NCBI GenBank assembly: GCA_030651475.1
Contig: JAUSEW010000002.1
Span: 19,927 to 83,926 of the forward strand
Length of the DNA: 64,000 nt
DNA from: Candidatus Levyibacteriota bacterium
Lineage (GTDB): Bacteria; Patescibacteriota; Microgenomatia; Levybacterales; UBA12049
Direction of reading: 5' to 3'
Below, piece after piece: positions 3,659 to 54,135 of this stretch. The position numbers were made by a program, and so were the translations under genes. How positions within the stretch are numbered: position 1 is the first letter of the stretch; each line of letters starts with the position of its first letter. The notes under the pieces were generated by a model. The model ran no database searches. It was not told the DNA's origin and was given only the letters and a program-made list of their open reading frames with translations.

Positions 3659-5122
3659 ATGCAGAGTTCTTTTGTAATGGTTATTTTTGGTGCAACCGGT
3701 GATTTGGCGCAAAACAAACTTATCCCCTCGCTTTTTTCTCTTTTCAAACAAAAACAACTACCAACAGACTTTTTTATAGTAGGTTTTTCAAGAAGAGAAC
3801 TTAGCGACAGCGATTTTGGATCATATTTCAAAGCTCTTCAAGATAAAGAAGGATGGAATGAGTTTGCCAAACATTTATCTTACCAAAAAGGAAGCTTTGA
3901 TGACATAAGCGGATATTCAGAGCTTATAGATAAACTTAAAAAACTTGACGACAAAATCGGCGCGTGCGTAACTCGCTTTTTTTACCTTGCCACTCCTCCG
4001 GATCATTATCAAAATATTCTTAAGTTTTTGCGGGAAACTAAACTATCGGAGGGGTGCGGTCCCCACTTCGCCCCGCTAAGCGGGGCTTCGAGGAGCAAGC
4101 AAGAGAGTAAGTGGACAAGGATAATTATTGAGAAACCTTTCGGTAAGGATCTAGAGACTGCAAAAGCATTGGATATGAAGCTTTCCGAAGTCTTTGAGGA
4201 GAAACAAATTTTTAGGGTGGATCATTACTTGGGTAAAGAAACAATGCAAAATATTATTGCTTTTAGATTTGCCAATGGAATTTTTGAGCCGGTTTGGAAT
4301 AAAAATTTTATAGACCATGTGCAAATTACTTGGGCGGAGGAACAAGGTGTAAAAGAAAGGGGAAATTTTTTTGACGGAGTAGGATTACTTCGGGATGTCG
4401 GACAAAATCATTTGATGCAGCTTGTTACGGCAGTTGCTATGGAAAGCCCGAAGAGTTTTTCCAAAGAAGGAGTCAGAGATGCAAGAGCAGAGGTTATTAA
4501 AAAAATCCGTTGCGTAGAATCAAGTGAAGTTTCGAAAAATATAGTTAGGGGTCAATATGAAAATTATAGATCGGAAAAAAATGTAGCGAAAAATTCCAAT
4601 ACGGAAACATTCGTTGCTATGAAAATTTTTGTTGATACGGATCGGATGGCAGGCGTGCCTTTTTATATAAGAATGGGTAAAAAAATGCCCAAAAATTTAG
4701 TTGAAATATCTGTTGTTTTTATACAGACTTGCCACATTTTGTTTAAAGAATATGGCTGTCCTGAAATAGGAAATGTTTTGGTGTTTAGAATTCAGCCGGA
4801 TGAAGGAATTAATCTTCGCGTCATCGCAAAAAAGCCCGGCGCCAAGCTTTCTCTAGGAACCGTTAATATGAATTTTTCCTACGAAGATCAATTTAGGACA
4901 AATGGAGCAGATGCGTACGAGAAAGTGCTTCTTGATATTTTTGCAGGCGATCAAATGCTTTTCAATAGATCGGATGAGTTGGAAAGTTCATGGGAATTTA
5001 TAACAAAAATTTTGAAAGGATGGGCTAATTTAGGGGTTGAACCCCTAAAGTATAAGGCGGGAACTTGGGGACCGGAAGAGGCGGAGGCGCTAATCGAAAA
5101 AGACGGGAGGAAGTGGATATAA
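3659..5122 (+). CDS. zwf: glucose-6-phosphate 1-dehydrogenase
   Basis: IFGATGDLA NADP motif, IIEKPFG and RVDHYLGKE active-site motifs. Confidence 0.9.
   Translation: MQSSFVMVIFGATGDLAQNKLIPSLFSLFKQKQLPTDFFIVGFSRRELSDSDFGSYFKALQDKEGWNEFAKHLSYQKGSFDDISGYSELIDKLKKLDDKIGACVTRFFYLATPPDHYQNILKFLRETKLSEGCGPHFAPLSGASRSKQESKWTRIIIEKPFGKDLETAKALDMKLSEVFEEKQIFRVDHYLGKETMQNIIAFRFANGIFEPVWNKNFIDHVQITWAEEQGVKERGNFFDGVGLLRDVGQNHLMQLVTAVAMESPKSFSKEGVRDARAEVIKKIRCVESSEVSKNIVRGQYENYRSEKNVAKNSNTETFVAMKIFVDTDRMAGVPFYIRMGKKMPKNLVEISVVFIQTCHILFKEYGCPEIGNVLVFRIQPDEGINLRVIAKKPGAKLSLGTVNMNFSYEDQFRTNGADAYEKVLLDIFAGDQMLFNRSDELESSWEFITKILKGWANLGVEPLKYKAGTWGPEEAEALIEKDGRKWI
4049..4094. repeat. GC-rich hairpin element inserted in frame in zwf
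   Basis: ~46-bp GC-rich segment in an AT-rich gene with internal stem GCCCCGC-TAA-GCGGGGC. Encodes ~15 extra residues (GCGPHFAPLSGASRS) just before the conserved IIEKPFG. Confidence 0.6.
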
Positions 5123-5233: not shown

Positions 5234-5557
5234 ATGAATATAACGTTTGATGAGTTTAAAAAGCTTGATATTAGAGTTGGGAAGATTTTGAGTGCGGAGA
5301 AAATTGAGGGAACGGATAAATTGTTGAAATTGGAAGTTGATTTCTCTGATTTTCGCCGTCAAATTGTGTCGGGAATAGCACAGTTTTATAAACCCGAAGA
5401 TTTGGTTGGGAAACTTTCTCCATTTATTCTTAATTTAGAACCAAGGGTAATGCGTGGAGTTGAAAGTCAGGGAATGCTTATGGCAGTTGATGTTGATGGC
5501 AAAGCAGTGCTTTTGAAACCTCTCAAAAAAGTCCCCGCAGGAAGTGCGATAGGATAA
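5234..5557 (+). CDS. tRNA-binding domain protein (CsaA/Trbp111-like)
   Basis: KLDIRVGKI...SQGML EMAP/Myf-type tRNA-binding fold. Confidence 0.7.
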   Translation: MNITFDEFKKLDIRVGKILSAEKIEGTDKLLKLEVDFSDFRRQIVSGIAQFYKPEDLVGKLSPFILNLEPRVMRGVESQGMLMAVDVDGKAVLLKPLKKVPAGSAIG

Positions 5558-9119: not shown

Positions 9120-9995
9120 ATGAAAGAGAGAGAAGTGTCGCAATTTGGATCAAATCCAGAATTCGCAATAAGCAAAGATCAAAAGGAACGATTTATTACT
9201 CGTAGAATGGTAGTAAAAATTGGAAGTAGTACCTTGTCTAAGGATGGTGATCCGCTCAATAGGGTGTTTATGGATAGTATTGCTTGCCAATCAAGCAGGC
9301 TTTTTAAAAGTGGAGTTGAGCTTCTTATTGTTTCATCAGGAGCTGTGGTAAGTGGGGATTGGCTAATTAGAGAAAGGGGGATCAATATAAATCAACTTTT
9401 TTCAGGTCACCTGCAGAGCTTAACGGAAAAAGAGGGGAAAGTTTTTTTAGATAGAGTAAGGGCATTTTATGGTCAGGCAGAGTTAATGAGCACATGGAGA
9501 GAGGCTTTTGCACATTACGGAATTTTGGCAGGCCAGGGACTCTATGAAGATAGAAATCTGAAAAAGGAAAACACGAAGGATGTTTTGGAGTCTTGTTGTA
9601 AAATCGGCGTGCCAATAATTAACGCAAACGATGCCGTGAGTGATTTCGAGATGCGACAATTTGCACTTTCTGCCGATAACGATAAGCTTGCCGGGTTTAT
9701 TGCAAGAACCGTAAATGCTGATACTTTGATTCTCTTAACAGATGTTGATGGGGTATTGGATAAGAATGGAGAAGTACTTTCTCACGTTGATAGGCTTGAA
9801 GATATCCAAGAGCTTATAAAAGATACAAGCGGTAGGCCGGGCGGTATGTGGGGTAAAGCCATAGTCGCCAAAACTGCGGCAAGGGATGATAAGCGCGCTT
9901 TTATTGCCAGCGGAAGAGAAAAGGACGTATTGGTTCGAATTGCAAAAGGAGAAAATGTGGGAACTAGATTTAAGAAAGGCTGGATGTTATACTAA
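9120..9995 (+). CDS. amino-acid kinase family protein, glutamate 5-kinase-like
   Basis: VVKIGSS, NANDAV, ADNDKLAG, LTDVDGV and GRPGGMWGKAI correspond to ProB motifs. The true start may be the Met at 9207. Confidence 0.65.
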   Translation: MKEREVSQFGSNPEFAISKDQKERFITRRMVVKIGSSTLSKDGDPLNRVFMDSIACQSSRLFKSGVELLIVSSGAVVSGDWLIRERGININQLFSGHLQSLTEKEGKVFLDRVRAFYGQAELMSTWREAFAHYGILAGQGLYEDRNLKKENTKDVLESCCKIGVPIINANDAVSDFEMRQFALSADNDKLAGFIARTVNADTLILLTDVDGVLDKNGEVLSHVDRLEDIQELIKDTSGRPGGMWGKAIVAKTAARDDKRAFIASGREKDVLVRIAKGENVGTRFKKGWMLY

Positions 9996-9999
9996 AAAT

Positions 10000-10353
10000 A
10001 TGATAAAGACGGTAATTAGTTACGAGGATTTTGATAAAGTAGATATTCGGATCGGGAAAATTATAAAAATAGAAGATTTTCCAGAAGCGAAAAAACCTGC
10101 CTTTAAGCTTACTATCGATTTTGGTTCGGAGGTTGGTATAAAAACTTCCAGCGCACAATTTGTTAAAAACCAGACAAAAGAAGATTTGATGGGGAGGAAA
10201 GTTGCATGCGTTGTAAATTTCGCGCCACGACAGATTGGTCCATTCGTATCGGAAGTTCTCACATTGGGTCCTGACGATGGAACAGAAGATGTAAGCAATT
10301 GGGTCGTGTTGACGCCGTTTAAAGACGTGCCAGTGGGAAGGAATGTAAGGTAA
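10000..10353 (+). CDS. tRNA-binding domain protein (CsaA/Trbp111-like), paralog of 5234..5557
   Basis: KVDIRIGKII...FKLTIDFG EMAP-type fold. Internal ATG at 10000 follows the stop of the upstream kinase. Confidence 0.7.
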   Translation: MIKTVISYEDFDKVDIRIGKIIKIEDFPEAKKPAFKLTIDFGSEVGIKTSSAQFVKNQTKEDLMGRKVACVVNFAPRQIGPFVSEVLTLGPDDGTEDVSNWVVLTPFKDVPVGRNVR

Positions 10354-10354
10354 T

Positions 10355-11620
10355 ATGAGATATTCGAAATTATTTGGGAAGACGATTAAGAATGCGCCAA
10401 GTGATGAAGTCGCGGTTAATGCCAAACTCTTAACGAAAGCGGGATTTATTAGAAAAGAAATAGCAGGCGTTTACAATTTCTTACCCCTTGGCTTAAGAGT
10501 GCTTAACAAAATTTCAAACATCGTCCGTGAAGAAATGAATGCGATAGGAGGTCAGGAGTTGGAGCTTACTACTTTGCAAAATAAACAATCATGGGAGAAA
10601 ACAGGAAGATGGAGTTCTTTTGATGTGCTTTTTAAAGCAAAAAGCCAGCTTGATATAGAATACCCTTTAGGTCCTACTCATGAAGAGGTAATCGTGCCTT
10701 TAGCAAAGCAGTTTGTAAATTCCTACAAAGATTTGCCTCTTTACGTTTACCAAATTCAAACGAAATTTAGGGACGAAAAGAGAGCCCAAAGCGGACTTTT
10801 ACGAGGAAGAGAATTTTTAATGAAGGATTTATATTCGTTCCATACGGATGAAAAGGACTTTGAGAAATATTACGAAATCGCGAAAAAAGCCTACAAGAAA
10901 CTTTTCCAAAGATTAGGACTTGACGCCATAGAAACGCAGGCAGGAGGAGGAACTTTCAGCAAATTTTCCCATGAATATCAAGTGGTTGCAGAAGCAGGAG
11001 AAGATGAGATTATCTATTGTCCCGCCTTCGCCAAGGCTTCGGTGGGCAAGCCGGGCTGTCATTTTTCCCAGAATCAAGAGATAGCAGGGGTAAAAGAAAA
11101 TGAATCATGTCCGATTTGTCAGAAAAAACTCGCCAAAGCCAAAGCGATTGAGGTTGGTAATATTTTTCCCTTGAAGACTAAATTTTCGGAAACTTTTGGG
11201 CTTACGTATAAGGGTAAAGACGGCAAAGAAAATCCTGTTGTGATGGGCTGTTATGGCATTGGCATATCAAGATTAATGGGGACGATTGCTGAAGTTTATA
11301 ATGATGAGAAGGGGATTATTTGGCCGAAAAGTGTGGCGCCATATCAAGTGCACTTGATAATGATTAATGATAAAGGATTAAGGATTAAGAAAAGAGCGGA
11401 TGAGGTTTACGAGAAGCTGCAAAAAGCCGGAATTGAAGTTTTGTATGATGACAGAGAAGATGTTTCCGCAGGAGGGAAATTTGCAGACGCGGATTTAATT
11501 GGAATTCCGGTCAGACTTGTTGTTTCAGAAAAGACTGGGGATAAGATAGAGTGGAAGAAAAGAAGCGAAGAAAAAACAGAATTCTTAAGTGAAGAAGAAC
11601 TAATTAGACGCCTAGTTTAA
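10355..11620 (+). CDS. proS: prolyl-tRNA synthetase (bacterial type lacking INS editing domain)
   Basis: Close N-terminal match to E. coli ProRS (GPTHEEVI, YQIQTKFRDE, REFLMKD). Only 421 aa. Confidence 0.9.
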   Translation: MRYSKLFGKTIKNAPSDEVAVNAKLLTKAGFIRKEIAGVYNFLPLGLRVLNKISNIVREEMNAIGGQELELTTLQNKQSWEKTGRWSSFDVLFKAKSQLDIEYPLGPTHEEVIVPLAKQFVNSYKDLPLYVYQIQTKFRDEKRAQSGLLRGREFLMKDLYSFHTDEKDFEKYYEIAKKAYKKLFQRLGLDAIETQAGGGTFSKFSHEYQVVAEAGEDEIIYCPAFAKASVGKPGCHFSQNQEIAGVKENESCPICQKKLAKAKAIEVGNIFPLKTKFSETFGLTYKGKDGKENPVVMGCYGIGISRLMGTIAEVYNDEKGIIWPKSVAPYQVHLIMINDKGLRIKKRADEVYEKLQKAGIEVLYDDREDVSAGGKFADADLIGIPVRLVVSEKTGDKIEWKKRSEEKTEFLSEEELIRRLV

Positions 11621-27323: not shown

Positions 27324-28109
27324 ATGACAATGCGACACATTGAAAGCAAAGAAGGATTAGGAGAATTCGTTGGGGATCCCAATGGCGATAAAGCCAAATT
27401 AGCAATAACTCTCATAGAGGGCGCAAGAAAATGGAGGGAGACATTTGGAGATATTTCTTTGCCATCTGTTACAGCTTCAGTTGAAGTAAAACCATTTTCT
27501 CCAGAAGCAGTTACTAATTATTGGCGAACAAAATTACAAGCAGATGGTAAAAGAATAGGACTTTCTATTTCCGTGCCAGATTGTAGTTGGACAGAAGCAG
27601 AAATAAGAAAGCCAATGGTAGATGTTAAAGGAAACGAAGTTCCTTCAATGTTAGTTTATGTTCCGCAAGAGCTTATGGGAAAAGAAGGATTAGTAAGATT
27701 AGGACAGATGTATCCAAAGATGAATAACTGGTCTGTTCAAGAAGACACTAGCGTGCAAAATAGTCCTGATGCAAACAAAAAAGGCGGATGGGTTAAAGTA
27801 GAAGCAATTGTTGATGCCCCAAATCTTAATACTACTCAGGAAGATCTTGAACAGCATGCCAAAGATAAAAAATATTTCGCACAAACATTAAATACTTTTA
27901 TTCTTGCTTCTCAAGCAAATAAAGATTTAACAGGACGTTACTTAGATGAAGGATCGACATGGTCTCGTTTGCTTGGTTCTCGTCGCGCGAGCGGTGTGGT
28001 TCATGCCGACTTCGGTTCGGGTGGGTACTTGTTTGTCGGTTGGGGTCTGGGTCCGCAGGGTCACGGTTCGGGCATAGGCGGGCGTTTTGAAGAAGTGAAG
28101 AAAGCTTAA
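27324..28109 (+). CDS. DGR variable (target) protein, C-terminal CLec/FGE-like variable region
   Basis: C-terminus carries the VR (..GSTWSRLLGSRRASGVVHADFGSGGYLFVGWGLGPQGHGSGIGGRF..). Confidence 0.8.
   Translation: MTMRHIESKEGLGEFVGDPNGDKAKLAITLIEGARKWRETFGDISLPSVTASVEVKPFSPEAVTNYWRTKLQADGKRIGLSISVPDCSWTEAEIRKPMVDVKGNEVPSMLVYVPQELMGKEGLVRLGQMYPKMNNWSVQEDTSVQNSPDANKKGGWVKVEAIVDAPNLNTTQEDLEQHAKDKKYFAQTLNTFILASQANKDLTGRYLDEGSTWSRLLGSRRASGVVHADFGSGGYLFVGWGLGPQGHGSGIGGRFEEVKKA
27971..28097 (+). repeat. DGR variable repeat (VR)
   Basis: 127 bp aligned to the TR without gaps. 26 of 28 mismatches are at TR adenines. Confidence 0.85.
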
Positions 28110-28430
28110 ACCTTTGCCTCTTTGTCCTTTTAGCTCCTTTGACTTTCGTTTTTTTATAGTCCTCCCAAACTATTTTATGCTACAATACTCCTGAGAGTAG
28201 GTTAATACATTCTTAAGCTAAGACTTTAGAATTACCGAAATCCTTGATTTTCAAAATTTTGTTCGATTTCTGTTGTTTATGGATAACAGAAGAATACAAA
28301 AGAAAAACAAGACACTTCTTGCCTAATGCTTGCGAAGATGTCCTGAGCTTGTCGAAGGACTACTTCCAAATAAAATACAACAGTAAGAGTAATCAAACTG
28401 TGGTGGTAATTGATGGCATAAGGCAAAAAA

Positions 28431-28557
28431 GCTTGGTTCTCGTAACGAGAGCAATGTGGTTAATGCCAACTTCAATTCGGATGGTAACTTGAATGTCAAT
28501 TGGAATCTGAATCCGCAGAATCACAATTCGAACATAGGCGGGCGTTTTGGAGAAGTA
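28431..28557 (+). repeat. DGR template repeat (TR)
   Basis: AAY-codon-rich (Asn) copy: ..NVVNANFNSDGNLNVNWNLNPQNHNSNIGGRF.. Confidence 0.85.
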
Positions 28558-28564
28558 GCTTGTT

Positions 28565-28861
28565 TTAAATTTGAGTTAATGATCTTTTCCATCCTCCAAG
28601 CATCCTGCCAACTTCTTGGAGGAATTGTTCTAACTGTAGATATTTATTATTGTCAAGAGATTGAACATCTTTAGCCAGTCTGAGCAATATCTTTAAAAGA
28701 TCTAATGAGATGATAGCTTTTTCAAGATAAAGAAGCTTTTTGTCTTTCTGACTTGTTCCTGCCATAAGGATTAGTTCGAAAATTGTAAGCGTTAGACTAT
28801 CCAGCTTTTGTCCTAAAGTGTAGCGGTCTTTTTTGGGGAAAAGCTTCAGGTATCCATACAA
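28565..28861 (-). CDS. avd: accessory variability determinant (Avd), four-helix-bundle family
   Basis: C-terminal EVGRMLGGWKRS matches Bordetella phage Avd EVGRILGSWIAR, and FPKKDRYTLGQKL is the helix-2 signature. TTG start. The frame stays open upstream through the (AC)n tract. Confidence 0.75.
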   Translation of the reverse strand: MYGYLKLFPKKDRYTLGQKLDSLTLTIFELILMAGTSQKDKKLLYLEKAIISLDLLKILLRLAKDVQSLDNNKYLQLEQFLQEVGRMLGGWKRSLTQI

Positions 28862-28911
28862 TAATTTGTAGAAATCATAGAATCTTTGAATAAGAGGTAT
28901 GTCAAAGTCAG

Positions 28912-28932
28912 GTGTGTGTGTGTGTGTGTGTG
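28912..28932. repeat. (GT)10 dinucleotide microsatellite between divergent avd and RT
   Basis: GTGTGTGTGTGTGTGTGTGTG. Confidence 0.9.
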
Positions 28933-28947
28933 AATATCTTTATCTGT

Positions 28948-30012
28948 ATGCATATTGATACATTCGACGGTGCCGAGCACCGCTCAGTATCAACCCTGAG
29001 CGAAGTCGAACGGGTTGATTATTCCAAGCTTATCTCAATAGAAAATTTATTTCAAGCATGGAAAGAGTTTAGAAAAGGAAAAGCTAAGCGTTTTGATGTT
29101 GCGGAATTTGAAAGGAATTTAGAAGATAATTTATTTGAATTACATTTAAAATTGAAAAATAAAAGTTATAAACATGGAGGTTACGAATCATTTTATGTTC
29201 ACGACCCAAAACAGCGGCATATTCATAAAGCAAGTGTTATAGATAGGGTAGTTCATCATCTGCTTTACACCTTTTTGTATAAGTTGTTTGACAGAGTATT
29301 TATTTATGATTCCTATTCCTGCAGACTTAATAAAGGAACCCATAAAGGAGTAAAGAGATTAGCGGAACTTACAAGAAAAGTTTCTAAAAACTATACAAGA
29401 CCTTGTTTTGCTTTAAAATTAGATATTAAAAAGTTTTTTGCCAGCGTTGACCATGAAGTTTTACTTACCTTACTTAAGAAAAAGGTTAAAGATAAAGATA
29501 TTATTTGGTTGTTAGTACAGATAATCAATAGTTTTTACTCGGATAAAGGAGAAGGGAAAGGAATGCCTCTTGGCAATTTAACCAGTCAGGTTTTTGCCAA
29601 TATTTACCTCAATGAACTTGACCAGTTTACAAAACATAAGTTAAAAGTAAAATATTATCTTCGTTATGCAGATGATTTTCTGTTTTTATCAAAGAATAAA
29701 GAGTTATTGTGTAAATATATTGACGTATTAAGACAATTCCTGAGCAACGGACTTAAACTTGAACTTCATCCTAATAAGATTATCTTTCGTAAATTAGAAT
29801 GGGGAATTGATTTCTTAGGCTACATAGTTTTACCTCATTATATTTTGCCAAGGACAAAAACTAGAAAAAGGATTTTTAAAAAATTAAAGGAAAATGTTGG
29901 TTCAGAAAACTTTAATCAATCCTTGCAATCCTATTTAGGATATTTAGGGCATGCCAGCAGTTTTAAAATAGCCCAATCTCTACTTTACTTTTACCAAAAA
30001 TATAGCTTATGA
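28948..30012 (+). CDS. DGR reverse transcriptase
   Basis: N-terminus ENLFQAWKEFRKGK resembles Brt. GNLTSQVFANIYLNELD carries the DGR SQ motif. RYADDFLFL is the YxDD motif. Start could instead be GTG 28912. Confidence 0.85.
   Translation: MHIDTFDGAEHRSVSTLSEVERVDYSKLISIENLFQAWKEFRKGKAKRFDVAEFERNLEDNLFELHLKLKNKSYKHGGYESFYVHDPKQRHIHKASVIDRVVHHLLYTFLYKLFDRVFIYDSYSCRLNKGTHKGVKRLAELTRKVSKNYTRPCFALKLDIKKFFASVDHEVLLTLLKKKVKDKDIIWLLVQIINSFYSDKGEGKGMPLGNLTSQVFANIYLNELDQFTKHKLKVKYYLRYADDFLFLSKNKELLCKYIDVLRQFLSNGLKLELHPNKIIFRKLEWGIDFLGYIVLPHYILPRTKTRKRIFKKLKENVGSENFNQSLQSYLGYLGHASSFKIAQSLLYFYQKYSL
28990..29018. repeat. palindromic element (family 1, inverted orientation) within the RT 5' region
   Basis: TCAACCCTGAGCGAAGTCGAACGGGTTGA. 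Confidence 0.65.
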
Positions 30013-46034: not shown

Positions 46035-46571
46035 ATGGCACGAAGTTTGAATAGGGTACAATTAATCGGAAATTTGACTAGAGATCCGGAACTGCGATAC
46101 ACGCCAAACGGCACAGCTGTTTGCTCTTTCTCTATCGCAACCAATAGAACTTGGAAAACAGAAGCCGGAGAGAAACGCGAAGAAACGGAATTTCATAGGA
46201 TTGTTTCCTGGAATAAGCTGGCGGAATTATGCAGCCAGTTTTTAACTAAAGGAAGAAAAGTGTACGTTGAGGGACGGCTTACAACTAGAAGCTGGACAGG
46301 ACAGGACGGAAATCAAAGGACAACAACGGAAATAGTTATCCAAGACATGATACTTCTTGATCGAAGACCTGAGGGAGTTGCGGCTTCGGAAAATGGCAAT
46401 GAACAGACAACGGGAGAAGATGAAAAGAAAGCGCCTAAAGTGAGTAAAGAGCCTGTTAAAAAAGAAAAAAGCGAAGAAGTAACTGAAGAGACGGCCGCCT
46501 CCGCTAAGAGCTCCGGCGAGCCAAAGGAAGAAGGAAGCGAAGAAGTTGCACCGGACGATATACCTTTTTAA
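46035..46571 (+). CDS. ssb: single-stranded DNA-binding protein
   Basis: OB fold and acidic DDIPF tail. Confidence 0.9.
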   Translation: MARSLNRVQLIGNLTRDPELRYTPNGTAVCSFSIATNRTWKTEAGEKREETEFHRIVSWNKLAELCSQFLTKGRKVYVEGRLTTRSWTGQDGNQRTTTEIVIQDMILLDRRPEGVAASENGNEQTTGEDEKKAPKVSKEPVKKEKSEEVTEETAASAKSSGEPKEEGSEEVAPDDIPF

Positions 46572-52992: not shown

Positions 52993-54135
52993 TTATAATT
53001 CAATAAGTTCTCTTGAGCAACGGGTTAAGAAGCGGGGACCGGATTTTCCTAGGACTACCAAATCTTCAATTCTTACCCCTCCAAATCCGGGAATGTAGAT
53101 CCCCGGTTCTATAGAGAAAACCATATTTTCTTTTAAAATATCTTTCGAAAGGGGAGAAAGGCGAGGAGATTCATGTACCTCAAGGCCAATGCCGTGGCCA
53201 AGAGAATGAGGAATTGTCGGGAATCCTTTCGTAGTAATATAATCTCTGGCGATTTTATCAATTTCGGATGCCTTTATTGCTAATTGCTTCATTGTTAAAT
53301 TGTTTAATTGCTGAATTGCTTTTTGCTGGGCTTCTAGAACCGTTTGGTACATCTTTTTAAATTCTGCATTTGCAGAACCAAAGAAAACGGTTCTTGTCAT
53401 ATCGGAACAATAATTATTCAGTTTCACGCCAAAATCCAGCAATACGATTTGGTCTTTAGCCGTTAGTCTTTGGTCGCTAGCTTGATGGTGGGGGACAGAA
53501 GAATTTTTTCCAAAGGCAACGATAGGAGGAAAAGATATATTAGCCCCCTGTTTTTTGATAAAAAATTCTATTTCAAGGGCAATTTCTTTTTCACTTATTC
53601 CTTCTTTTATTTTCTTTAAAACATATTCAAAAGCTTTGTCTCCCAATTCGCATGCTTTTTCAATTTTAGAAATCTCATCAGGCGTTTTAACGCTTCGTAG
53701 ATTCGAAATACTTAAATGATATATATTATTAAAGTATTTTGACAGCCTTTTGTGTTCTAGAAAACTAATATTGTGACCTTCGAATCCTAATCGTTTTATG
53801 TTATTTTTTTGTGTAAGATTTTTTATTGCTTCTCCAAAAGAAAGTTTTGAAGAAATTTCAATAAGTTCAAAATCTTTGACTTGTTTTTTAACGGCTTCAG
53901 AATATCGCCCATCGGTAAGAATATACCCCAAAACCCCAGGGGTTCCGTGCGTCAACCCCTGGGGTTGAGCCACGATTAAAAGGAAAGCTTCCCGTTCATC
54001 CTTGGAGAAATTGGAAAATCCTGTTAGGTAAGTAATGTTAGGAACGGAGGAAATGAGTAGTCCGTCAATGTTCTTATTTAGCATTAAACTTTTTAAATTT
54101 AAGAGACGATTATTCATAAATTTAACATGTTTCAT
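52993..54135 (-). CDS. pepP: Xaa-Pro aminopeptidase (M24B)
   Basis: HGLGHGIGLEVHE and pita-bread fold motifs. In-frame palindromic insertion near the N-terminus. Confidence 0.85.
   Translation of the reverse strand: MKHVKFMNNRLLNLKSLMLNKNIDGLLISSVPNITYLTGFSNFSKDEREAFLLIVAQPQGLTHGTPGVLGYILTDGRYSEAVKKQVKDFELIEISSKLSFGEAIKNLTQKNNIKRLGFEGHNISFLEHKRLSKYFNNIYHLSISNLRSVKTPDEISKIEKACELGDKAFEYVLKKIKEGISEKEIALEIEFFIKKQGANISFPPIVAFGKNSSVPHHQASDQRLTAKDQIVLLDFGVKLNNYCSDMTRTVFFGSANAEFKKMYQTVLEAQQKAIQQLNNLTMKQLAIKASEIDKIARDYITTKGFPTIPHSLGHGIGLEVHESPRLSPLSKDILKENMVFSIEPGIYIPGFGGVRIEDLVVLGKSGPRFLTRCSRELIEL
53932..53966. repeat. duplicated 13-bp GC palindrome inserted in frame in pepP
   Basis: AACCCCAGGGGTT-ccgtgcgtc-AACCCCTGGGGTT encodes ..QPQGLTHGTPGVLG.. 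Confidence 0.65.

Follow-up and report, generated by a model that had tools for sequence, protein, structure and literature searches.

How did a short, GC-rich hairpin come to lie in frame within zwf, the glucose-6-phosphate 1-dehydrogenase (G6PD) gene of a metagenome-assembled Levybacteria genome, just upstream of the conserved IIEKPFG motif? The gene lies in a 64-kb stretch of contig JAUSEW010000002.1, called here the window. An earlier note on this DNA had suggested a “palindromic mobile or repeat element.” The repeat part of this suggestion holds, since the same motif is found in other genes and other frames and a covariance model of the motif recognizes the zwf copy; we infer that the repeat is mobile as well. 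Comparison with relatives shows, at the level of sequence, an insertion with respect to orthologous genes, membership in a repeat family, the same DNA in several genes and frames, and turnover at the insertion site. We consider it probable that the zwf segment is a copy of a selfish repeat akin to the repetitive extragenic palindromes (REPs) and the Rickettsia palindromic elements (RPEs), likely mobile and tolerated in a permissive protein loop.

The insert in zwf and the loop that holds it

The gene and the parts of the element are listed below, where WIN denotes the window copy, L-numbers denote fetched loci of relatives and contigs from IMG/VR, and family A and its covariance model R1 are the repeat family and the model described in the next section.

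3659-5122, + strand: zwf, encoding G6PD of 487 aa, from the list of open reading frames (ORFs) and from Pfam and PDB matches
4061-4099, + strand: net insertion relative to the base loop, 39 nt, codons and residues 135-147 (PHFAPLSGASRSK), between Gly134 (GGT) and Gln148 (CAA), from codon comparison with the base-state loci L002 and L083
4061-4101, + strand: whole element, a long-stem variant of family A, CCCCAC TTC GCCCCGC TAA GCGGGGC TTC GAGGAG CAAGCA, from covariance model R1
4061-4066, + strand: outer 5' arm CCCCAC, pairing at 4 of 6 positions with 4090-4095, from the alignment to R1 and the family architecture
4067-4069, + strand: 5' spacer TTC, one side of an asymmetric internal loop, with columns invariant or nearly so in the family alignment
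4070-4086, + strand: inner hairpin with the 7-bp stem GCCCCGC/GCGGGGC and apical TAA at 4077-4079, where short copies have GCC-AA-GGC, from a hairpin scan
4087-4089, + strand: 3' spacer TTC, from the family alignment and R1
4090-4095, + strand: outer 3' arm GAGGAG, degenerate relative to the consensus GGCGGG and identical in L081
4096-4101, + strand: 3' tail CAAGCA, conserved, whose final CA(A) is the Gln codon of the uninterrupted loop

The assignment of the host gene is firm. Its product matches the Pfam domains G6PD_N (5e-55) and G6PD_C (4e-106) and G6PD structures in the PDB (best match, 4e-120), both the IIEKPFG and RVDHYLGKE motifs are found in the translation, and an identical protein is annotated as “Candidatus Levybacteria” G6PD. 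The 46-mer to which the earlier note drew attention is present once in the window, at 4048-4093 and not at 4049-4094 as given there. Its stem had been described exactly: GCCCCGC (4070-4076), the loop TAA, and GCGGGGC (4080-4086) form a perfect 7-bp stem made only of G and C.

The segment is the GC maximum of the window in the local profile at 30, 46, and 60 nt (80%, 74%, and 68%, against a mean of 38%). By composition alone, it is moderately unusual: second-order Markov simulations of the window reach the 30-nt maximum of 0.80 in 23% of cases and the 46-nt maximum in 8%, and an all-G/C stem of at least 7 bp arises in 3.3%. As a class, GC-rich perfect hairpins are not enriched in the window (18 observed versus 14.4 +/- 4.0 expected). 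The inner hairpin folds as DNA with -9.2 kcal/mol (z = -1.7). A tRNA-Leu is the only Rfam match in the window, a permissive threshold over 3980-4170 yields nothing better than E = 0.11, and ARAGORN gives no tRNA-like origin for the element. The decisive evidence against chance is comparative, not compositional. Exact and near-exact searches of the window for CCCCGCTAAGCGGGG or the 46-mer gave no further copy, and the family to which the segment belongs was recognized only once the DNA of relatives was compared.

Alignment of Zwf orthologs supports an insertion. Among the 120 nearest Zwf proteins (65 to 85% identical), 60 have the short loop LSEGCG-QGS(S/N)KW-TRIIIEKPFG (CGQGSSKW) and the other 60 have inserts of varied kind and length, while in alignments with the solved human and cyanobacterial G6PD structures, Zwf residues ~128 to 145 lie opposite a gap of 17 to 18 positions. 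In the DNA of 52 fetched Levybacteria zwf loci, the base state reads TGYGGN CAR GGN AGY ... (TGYGGNCARGGNAGY). The insertion is therefore in frame and just upstream of IIEKPFG, as first proposed, but its length had been overestimated at about 15 residues: the G-C-G counted with it belongs to the conserved flank LSEGCG, and the true insert comprises 13 codons. In an AlphaFold model of Zwf (pLDDT, 78.7), residues 135 to 149 fall below a pLDDT of 50, in a disordered stretch bounded by helix 114-126 and by strand 153-158, from which the chain runs into IIEKPFG. Because the solved structures have a gap here and the pLDDT is low between helix and strand, the extra residues are predicted to form a disordered surface loop.

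The insertion is not specific to this genome, as a shorter version with identical arms is present in a Zwf that is 71% identical (L081). Three homologous inserts are the following.

L081, Zwf 71% identical: CCCCAC TTCGC TAAA GCTTCG AGGAGC AAG
L167, Zwf 67% identical: a close variant of the L081 insert
L163, Zwf 65% identical, long-stem form: TCCCAC TTC GTCCCAC TGA GCGGGAC TAC GCGGGA CAAG

Nor is the codon composition of the related extended loops ordinary, since those of L081, L163, L167, and L164 have 57 to 74% GC, compared with 38% for the gene; the exception is L088, which has one unrelated AT-rich extension. Unrelated inserts in the same loop include HPSTSSGQ, YPSAEYGK, and one AT-rich 17-mer. 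Part, at least, of what looks like a hotspot in zwf is thus tolerance.

Elsewhere in the zwf genes of relatives, more small hairpin-forming inserts occur in frame near residues ~59 (L092 and L104), ~394 (L110 and L123/127/128), and ~458 (L002, L088, L101, L110, and L115). Among them are AGGGGTTCAACCCCT, a tandem ACGCGATTGGATGGATCGCGT, and TCTGGC-TCT-GCCAGA, which is translated as ARSGSARQ.

A dispersed repeat with a nested palindrome

Family A has a consensus of about 33 nt, [YCCNCC] TTC [GCC AA GGC] TTC [GGNGGR] CAAGCA. The covariance model R1 was built from 20 copies, and the zwf copy of the window was left out of the training set. R1 nevertheless matches 4061-4101 over its full length (model positions 1 to 32) with 36.4 bits and E = 1.9e-6, the apical AA being replaced by 11 nt; an nhmmer match to the zwf element spans 4060-4103. 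By this independent test of its sequence, the zwf segment is a member of family A.

Copies in other Levybacteria genes were found with an nhmmer profile and then with the covariance model. Together with a second copy in the window, they are as follows.

11021-11052 of the window, + strand: short form in proS (ORF 10355-11620), CCCGCC TTC GCCAAGGC TTC GGTGGG CAAGCC; R1, 52.9 bits, in the training set
L165:8858: copy in the proS gene of a relative
L003, L144, L153, L081, and L135: copies in pgl, just after the GIGxDGHTAG motif
L165:6983: copy in gnd
L088:86: copy in an M50 protease gene
L110 and L123/127/128: copies at a second zwf site near residue 394, in the latter loci in the long-stem form TTCGCCCCGCTTAAGCGGG
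46496-46518 of the window, + strand: possible diverged relative in the C-terminal tail of ssb (46035-46571, with a Pfam match to SSB), CGCC TCC GCT AAG AGC TCC GGCG; a GC island; R1, 11.3 bits, E = 1.3

The proS copy is a second GC island that shares the motif with the zwf inserts of relatives. It is in frame, is read as PAFAKASVGKP, and splits a CxxC knuckle, giving CP[AFAKASVGKP]GCH where L166 has CEKCD. The ssb segment follows the nested plan with TCC spacers and may be a decayed relative of family A or a product of chance.

The occurrences are nonorthologous: five genes and six sites across the Levybacteria loci, plus the two sites in the window. The DNA is translated in three frames, which yield P.FAKAS.GKQ, ASPKLQRGE, and LRQGFGGQ, and a protein-level motif is therefore ruled out. 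Consensus sequences of the CAAG type are free of stop codons in all six frames. Over 426 kb, 20 of the 22 matches to R1 have the same orientation as their host gene.

The palindrome is nested, and it appears to be conserved through compensatory changes. When 21 copies are set on the nested structure, 92.6% of the cells pair, and five of the nine pairs have changes on both sides (25 cells); none of 500 shuffles reaches the observed pairing and covariation values. The covariation score is 0.324, compared with at most 0.09 for slid partners. Thirteen copies have C-G as their outermost pair and the other eight have T-A, without exception, and all three inner pairs covary. At position 2 of the inner stem, C-G in the window copy corresponds to T-A in L163, with both changes being nonsynonymous. 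RNA cannot adopt the short inner stem of 3 bp with its loop of 2 nt, and the conserved symmetry therefore points to recognition of duplex or single-stranded DNA and not to a stable RNA fold.

Copies also exist outside the Candidate Phyla Radiation (CPR). A degenerate 26-mer has exact matches in seven IMG/VR contigs (L168 to L174) of 60 to 65% GC, several of which share the full 31-mer CCCGCCTTCGCCAAGGCTTCGGCGGGCAGGC. These copies are in apparently intergenic positions, beside perfect palindromes with the arms CTTGTCCGCC..GGCGGACAAG, which correspond to the 3' arm plus tail of the element. Two of the contigs carry phage genes (GemA, ORF6N, and an adaptor protein), and a Pfam search of 10 ORFs on these two contigs gave no transposase. 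A search of IMG/VR gave no match to the long-stem motif TTCGCCCCGCTWAAGCGGG, and BLAST matches of the consensus to PLSDB plasmids are at chance level (best E = 0.08).

The position just after GIGxDGHTAG in pgl is a second insertion hotspot (L003, L083, L109, L118, L135, L153, and L166), and GC-rich palindromes there lie in or beside tandem heptamer arrays, among them (AAAATTC)n, (AAGTTCA)n, and (CAATTTC)n, which are translated, for instance, as KFKIQNSK. Another GC-rich motif, CCTTCGACAAGCTCAGGRC, recurs in loops of pgl and zwf, where it is read as PSTSSGQ or IRQAQDK.

Turnover at the zwf site

The two nearest relatives, L161 (85% identical) and L162 (80% identical), lack exactly the 30-nt core and keep the ends TGC GGT TCY CAC / AAK CAA, where the slash stands at the missing core (L161:1314-1450 and L162:769-905). 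The kept ends are read as SH-N/K-Q. As judged by its remnants, this state is a deletion scar of the element and not the base state. Informative sites favor the grouping (L162,(L161,WIN)), with 43 versus 30 versus 18 nucleotide sites and 12 versus 3 versus 2 amino acid sites. Such a grouping would imply that the same core was lost twice, or was regained, or was exchanged between lineages.

In a neighbor-joining tree of 86 zwf genes, from which the loop was excluded, family-type inserts fall into at least seven separate clades (L163, L081 plus L164, the window trio, L082 plus L086, L093 plus L131, L165, and L167), to which L095 adds a decayed copy. Most of the insert-bearing clades have base-state lineages as nearest neighbors. 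The similarity of two elements does not track the relatedness of their host genes. WIN and L081 have arms that agree at 28 of 28 positions, whereas their zwf genes are 70% identical overall and 49% identical at third positions; in the sister pair L081 and L164 (80% gene identity), the arms match at just 22 of 28.

Orientation and flanks vary as well. L131 (1900-1931) carries the element of its sister L093 (1903-1934) on the opposite strand with an identical R1 score, and in pgl, L118 and L135 (~300-345) have a 42-nt palindrome in exactly reverse-complementary forms. In L131, L165, and L015, the 5' flank is altered to TGC TTG/CTG CCC, which results in a perfect outer stem of 11 bp and turns the conserved Gly of LSEGCG into Leu. 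The GC skew is positive across the window, so that the + strand is probably the leading strand.

Filled and empty zwf sites reveal no target-site duplication; they share only the CAR (CAA/CAG) Gln codon. No conserved 5' target was seen at the insertion sites. A target-site duplication at other sites, suggested by similar AT-rich flanks (AAAGAT on both sides in L088), is unproven, the insert lengths being incompatible with the frame. We also considered that the zwf target GCGGRCAGG attracts the element by its likeness to the 3' arm GCGGGCARG, but the other sites have no such similarity and the same loop takes unrelated inserts, which leaves it an idea only. Taken together, the core deletion in the nearest relatives, the different subtypes in sister lineages, and the reversed orientation elsewhere show turnover, as far as sequences of extant loci can record it: as Levybacteria diverged, the element has been acquired, lost, modified, or flipped.

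Origin, rival explanations, and known counterparts

How might the repeat have arrived and persisted? We propose that DNA-level copying brought it into a permissive part of zwf, the loop between helix 114-126 and the beta-strand leading to EKPFG, and that the central stem of the zwf copy was lengthened to 7 bp. Because the length of the element is a multiple of three and the frame used has no stop codon, the ribosome would read through it, adding 13 residues of disordered surface loop, and the enzyme would presumably work as before; we take the repeat to be neutral for Zwf. Copies would be retained only at sites where extra hydrophilic residues, added in frame and without a stop codon, do no harm, which would account for the bias toward the P.FAKAS.GKQ frame and toward surface loops. 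Spread through a hairpin on single-stranded DNA, in the manner of HUH/Y1 transposases (IS200/IS605 and the REP-associated tyrosine transposases, RAYTs), is a tentative proposal; it agrees with the marked preference for one strand, the asymmetry of the TTC/TTC internal loop, and the lack of a target-site duplication. Stem growth, “correction” of the arms, and flips probably owe something to template switching at quasi-palindromes.

Several observations weigh against a mobile selfish repeat. (i) Short copies fold no better than shuffled sequences (z of ~0 to +1), the zwf hairpin itself reaching merely z = -1.7, and covariation counts can be inflated by inheritance within subfamilies. (ii) The neighbor-joining tree is without support values, and repeated precise loss of one ancient insertion is a formal alternative. 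(iii) The 64-kb window holds only two clear copies, and all sampled loci were chosen via zwf and hence cover the same few neighboring genes, so that the counts do not represent a whole-genome copy density or a ratio of coding to intergenic copies. (iv) The strong bias to one frame and orientation could mean selection on a peptide or an RNA, and with unrelated inserts in the same zwf loop, the hotspot may reflect tolerance and not targeting. (v) Pfam assigned 11 of 16 window ORFs and was also run on the 10 phage-contig ORFs, and no transposase was found near copies.

The foremost rival is a cis-acting nucleic acid structure with a host function, such as a site of mRNA stabilization or processing, a signal for translation to pause between structural units, or a palindrome bound by a protein, whose stem is kept by selection at each locus. 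We regard it as unlikely, and it could coexist with a mobile origin. Compensatory maintenance of the nested palindrome would be expected of it, as would identical arms in zwf genes of 70% identity and the location of 20 of 22 copies on the sense strand; moreover, a role as RNA elements has been reported for Escherichia coli REPs (PMC3733652). However, the core is gone from the two nearest relatives, and half of the near Zwf proteins have no insert. Copies sit at arbitrary loops of unrelated genes and even inside a CxxC knuckle, the short copies are thermodynamically ordinary, and the zwf segment has no Rfam match. The inner stem, with too few base pairs and too small a loop for RNA, resembles a duplex-DNA palindrome or a feature of single-stranded DNA.

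Less likely again is a local origin, in which a small palindrome within an older loop extension, GC-TAAA-GC (as in L081), grew to GCCCCGC-TAA-GCGGGGC during replication, through template switching or the correction of a quasi-palindrome. The long-stem variants argue against it: the same inner sequence occurs at this site in the distant L163 and at the other zwf site in L123 (TTCGCCCCGCTTAAGCGGG), so the long form is a subfamily and not a private event. It also leaves the near-identical 31-mers in different genes and genomes unexplained. Still, WIN and L081 differ solely by a symmetric gain of 9 nt around the center, the 5' flanks of L131 and L165 look “corrected” to perfect complementarity with the 3' tail (TGCTTGCCC versus GGGCAAGCA) at the cost of the conserved Gly, and other small zwf hairpin inserts, e.g., TCTGGC-TCT-GCCAGA, resemble local inverted duplications.

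Adaptation at the protein level, with a longer Zwf loop selected for regulation or interaction and its GC-richness incidental, is very improbable. Although the frame P.FAKAS.GKQ is strongly preferred (~16 of 23 copies by hand count) and the loop adjoins the catalytic EKPFG motif, the same DNA is used in three frames in different proteins, the stem-preserving double changes are nonsynonymous, and the peptide is predicted to be disordered, is missing from the nearest relatives, and shares its loop with many unrelated inserts across relatives. An assembly or binning artifact, i.e., a chimeric high-GC piece in a low-GC contig, has next to no probability: the same 26- to 31-mers do occur in contigs of 60 to 65% GC, but the segment keeps the frame, its length is divisible by three, and conserved codons continue without a break on either side; moreover, NCBI and Logan sources both list the identical protein, and homologous inserts stand at the same codon in many independent assemblies.

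A selfish, probably mobile repeat thus being the preferred origin, which known elements does it resemble? In-frame palindromic repeats are a textbook curiosity of Rickettsia and of a few REP-rich bacteria. In-frame insertions of both REPs and RPEs have been documented (PMC3733652; PMC10969869). Family A shares several traits with RPEs: palindromic repeats are dispersed through a small genome that is AT-rich and dense in genes, several families or subtypes exist, and the copies lie in frame in unrelated housekeeping genes, where they are read through and, it appears, tolerated in loops. Elements of the RPE-1 type measure ~100 to 150 bp (Ogata et al. 2000, as summarized in PMC10969869 and PMC3733652), whereas family A has 33 to 42 nt (41 nt in this zwf, 32 to 33 nt in short copies) and resides in CPR/Patescibacteria; the distinction is drawn by length and phylum, not by comparison with an RPE consensus. 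Family A further differs in using several reading frames, in recurring at one codon, and in having near-identical copies in high-GC phage contigs.

Some REPs lie inside genes and encode 10 to 30 extra residues (Di Nocera et al. 2013, PMC3733652); known hosts of such intragenic copies include tRNA synthetase genes (PMC3733652). Family A shares with the REP/REP-RAYT system the GC-rich imperfect palindrome of 20 to 40 nt with an asymmetry that confers polarity, and both are biased to one strand and lack a target-site duplication. However, the consensus CCCNCCTTCGCCAAGGCTTCGGNGGGCAAGCA and its reverse complement have no GTAG or CGTC tag (CGTC is merely a variant inside L163 and L165b), the clear copies in the sampled CPR loci are all intragenic, and the nested palindrome has TTC/TTC spacers. 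No RAYT (Y1/HUH transposase) flanked by repeats was found among the 16 window ORFs and 10 phage-contig ORFs run through Pfam, whole genomes not having been scanned. As for IS200/IS605 substrates, a hairpin with a strand bias (20/22) and without a target-site duplication would be consistent with such a relationship, but no conserved 5' target and no transposase were found.

Miniature inverted-repeat transposable elements are likewise short and nonautonomous, with terminal inverted arms, which in family A have 6 bp, or up to 11 bp in L131 and L165 (GCTTGCCCNCC and GGNGGGCAAGC). Family A is far below their typical 50 to 500 bp (PMC10969869) and has no detectable target-site duplication and no known parent insertion sequence. 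GC-rich short palindromes are also known from organelles. The GC clusters of yeast mitochondria are such elements of an AT-rich organelle genome, and the likeness of family A to them is by analogy only. Volvox organelle palindromes (PMC2670323) and coding palindromes of Nematomorpha (PMC6649704) are likewise GC-rich hairpins that are prominent in an AT-rich genome, spread selfishly, and can lie in coding sequence. All of these are organellar and unrelated to family A in sequence, and some are bypassed or lie in introns or spacers, whereas family A occupies the uninterrupted, presumably translated frame of a free bacterial genome.

We found no description of such elements in CPR bacteria in the open-access full-text literature that we searched. 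As a much shorter analogous family in Levybacteria, family A extends the phenomenon of in-frame palindromic repeats to this radiation. CPR genomes are tiny and nearly without intergenic DNA; a selfish repeat therefore has almost nowhere to go but protein loops. Such inserts may explain many lineage-specific GC-rich indels in CPR proteins, and they can mislead alignment, phylogeny, and structure prediction. They may likewise account for the peptides FAKASAGKQ, ASPKLRRA, and LRQGFGGQ, which recur in translated metagenome proteins; a protein database search with concatenated element peptides gave three word-sharing candidates and no matches, and is uninformative on distribution. If family A is truly mobile, it offers a tractable case of coding sequence that tolerates and recycles selfish DNA, with the zwf loop as a natural hotspot for comparing filled, scarred, inverted, and empty states.

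A bolder reading, to which we give a limited chance, is that family A is an undescribed mobile hairpin element that crosses phyla, with its 31-mer in CPR genes of 38% GC and in Mu-like phage contigs of 60 to 65% GC, and that it survives in gene-dense CPR genomes only in permissive loops with active turnover. Repeated insertion at one zwf codon, excision leaving a TCYCAC/AAG scar, and orientation flips would then be signs of this turnover, and a HUH/Y1 transposase or a reverse transcriptase, such as the enzyme of a diversity-generating retroelement (DGR) 25 kb away, would be candidate movers. If this reading is true, the element would continually supply core metabolic enzymes with loops of varied length.

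The DGR and some other features of the window are listed below.

27324-30012, + strand: DGR, with the target ORF 27324-28109 and a variable repeat (27971-28096) in a GC-rich island (27966-28097)
28431-28556: DGR template repeat, 79% identical to the variable repeat, with the differences at template adenines
28912-30012: ORF of the DGR reverse transcriptase (PF00078, 1.2e-22), with a (GT)10 run at its start (28913-28932)
52993-54135, - strand: gene for an Xaa-Pro peptidase M24, with a perfect 13-bp hairpin at 53930-53977, AACCCCAGGGGTT-9 nt-AACCCCTGGGGTT, in frame (AQPQGLTHGTPGVLG)
5234-5557 and 9886-10353: two separate small ORFs with a tRNA-binding domain (PF01588), within 5 kb of each other

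The shared end of the DGR repeats, CATAGGCGGGCGTTTTG, contains GGCGGGC, which is also found in the 3' arm of family A. A link between family A and the DGR has this heptamer as its sole support and was dropped. The hairpin in the Xaa-Pro peptidase gene (DNA fold, -14.8 kcal/mol; z = -3.6) is unlike family A in sequence and resembles the AGGGGTTCAACCCCT insert in the zwf gene of L092; as solved structures align ambiguously with the peptidase at this point, the hairpin is a possible insertion. Of the two tRNA-binding-domain ORFs, 9886-10353 was identified by Pfam and overlaps the end of an amino acid kinase ORF (9120-9995), while 5234-5557 was identified through orthologs at the same position in L161, L165, and L167.

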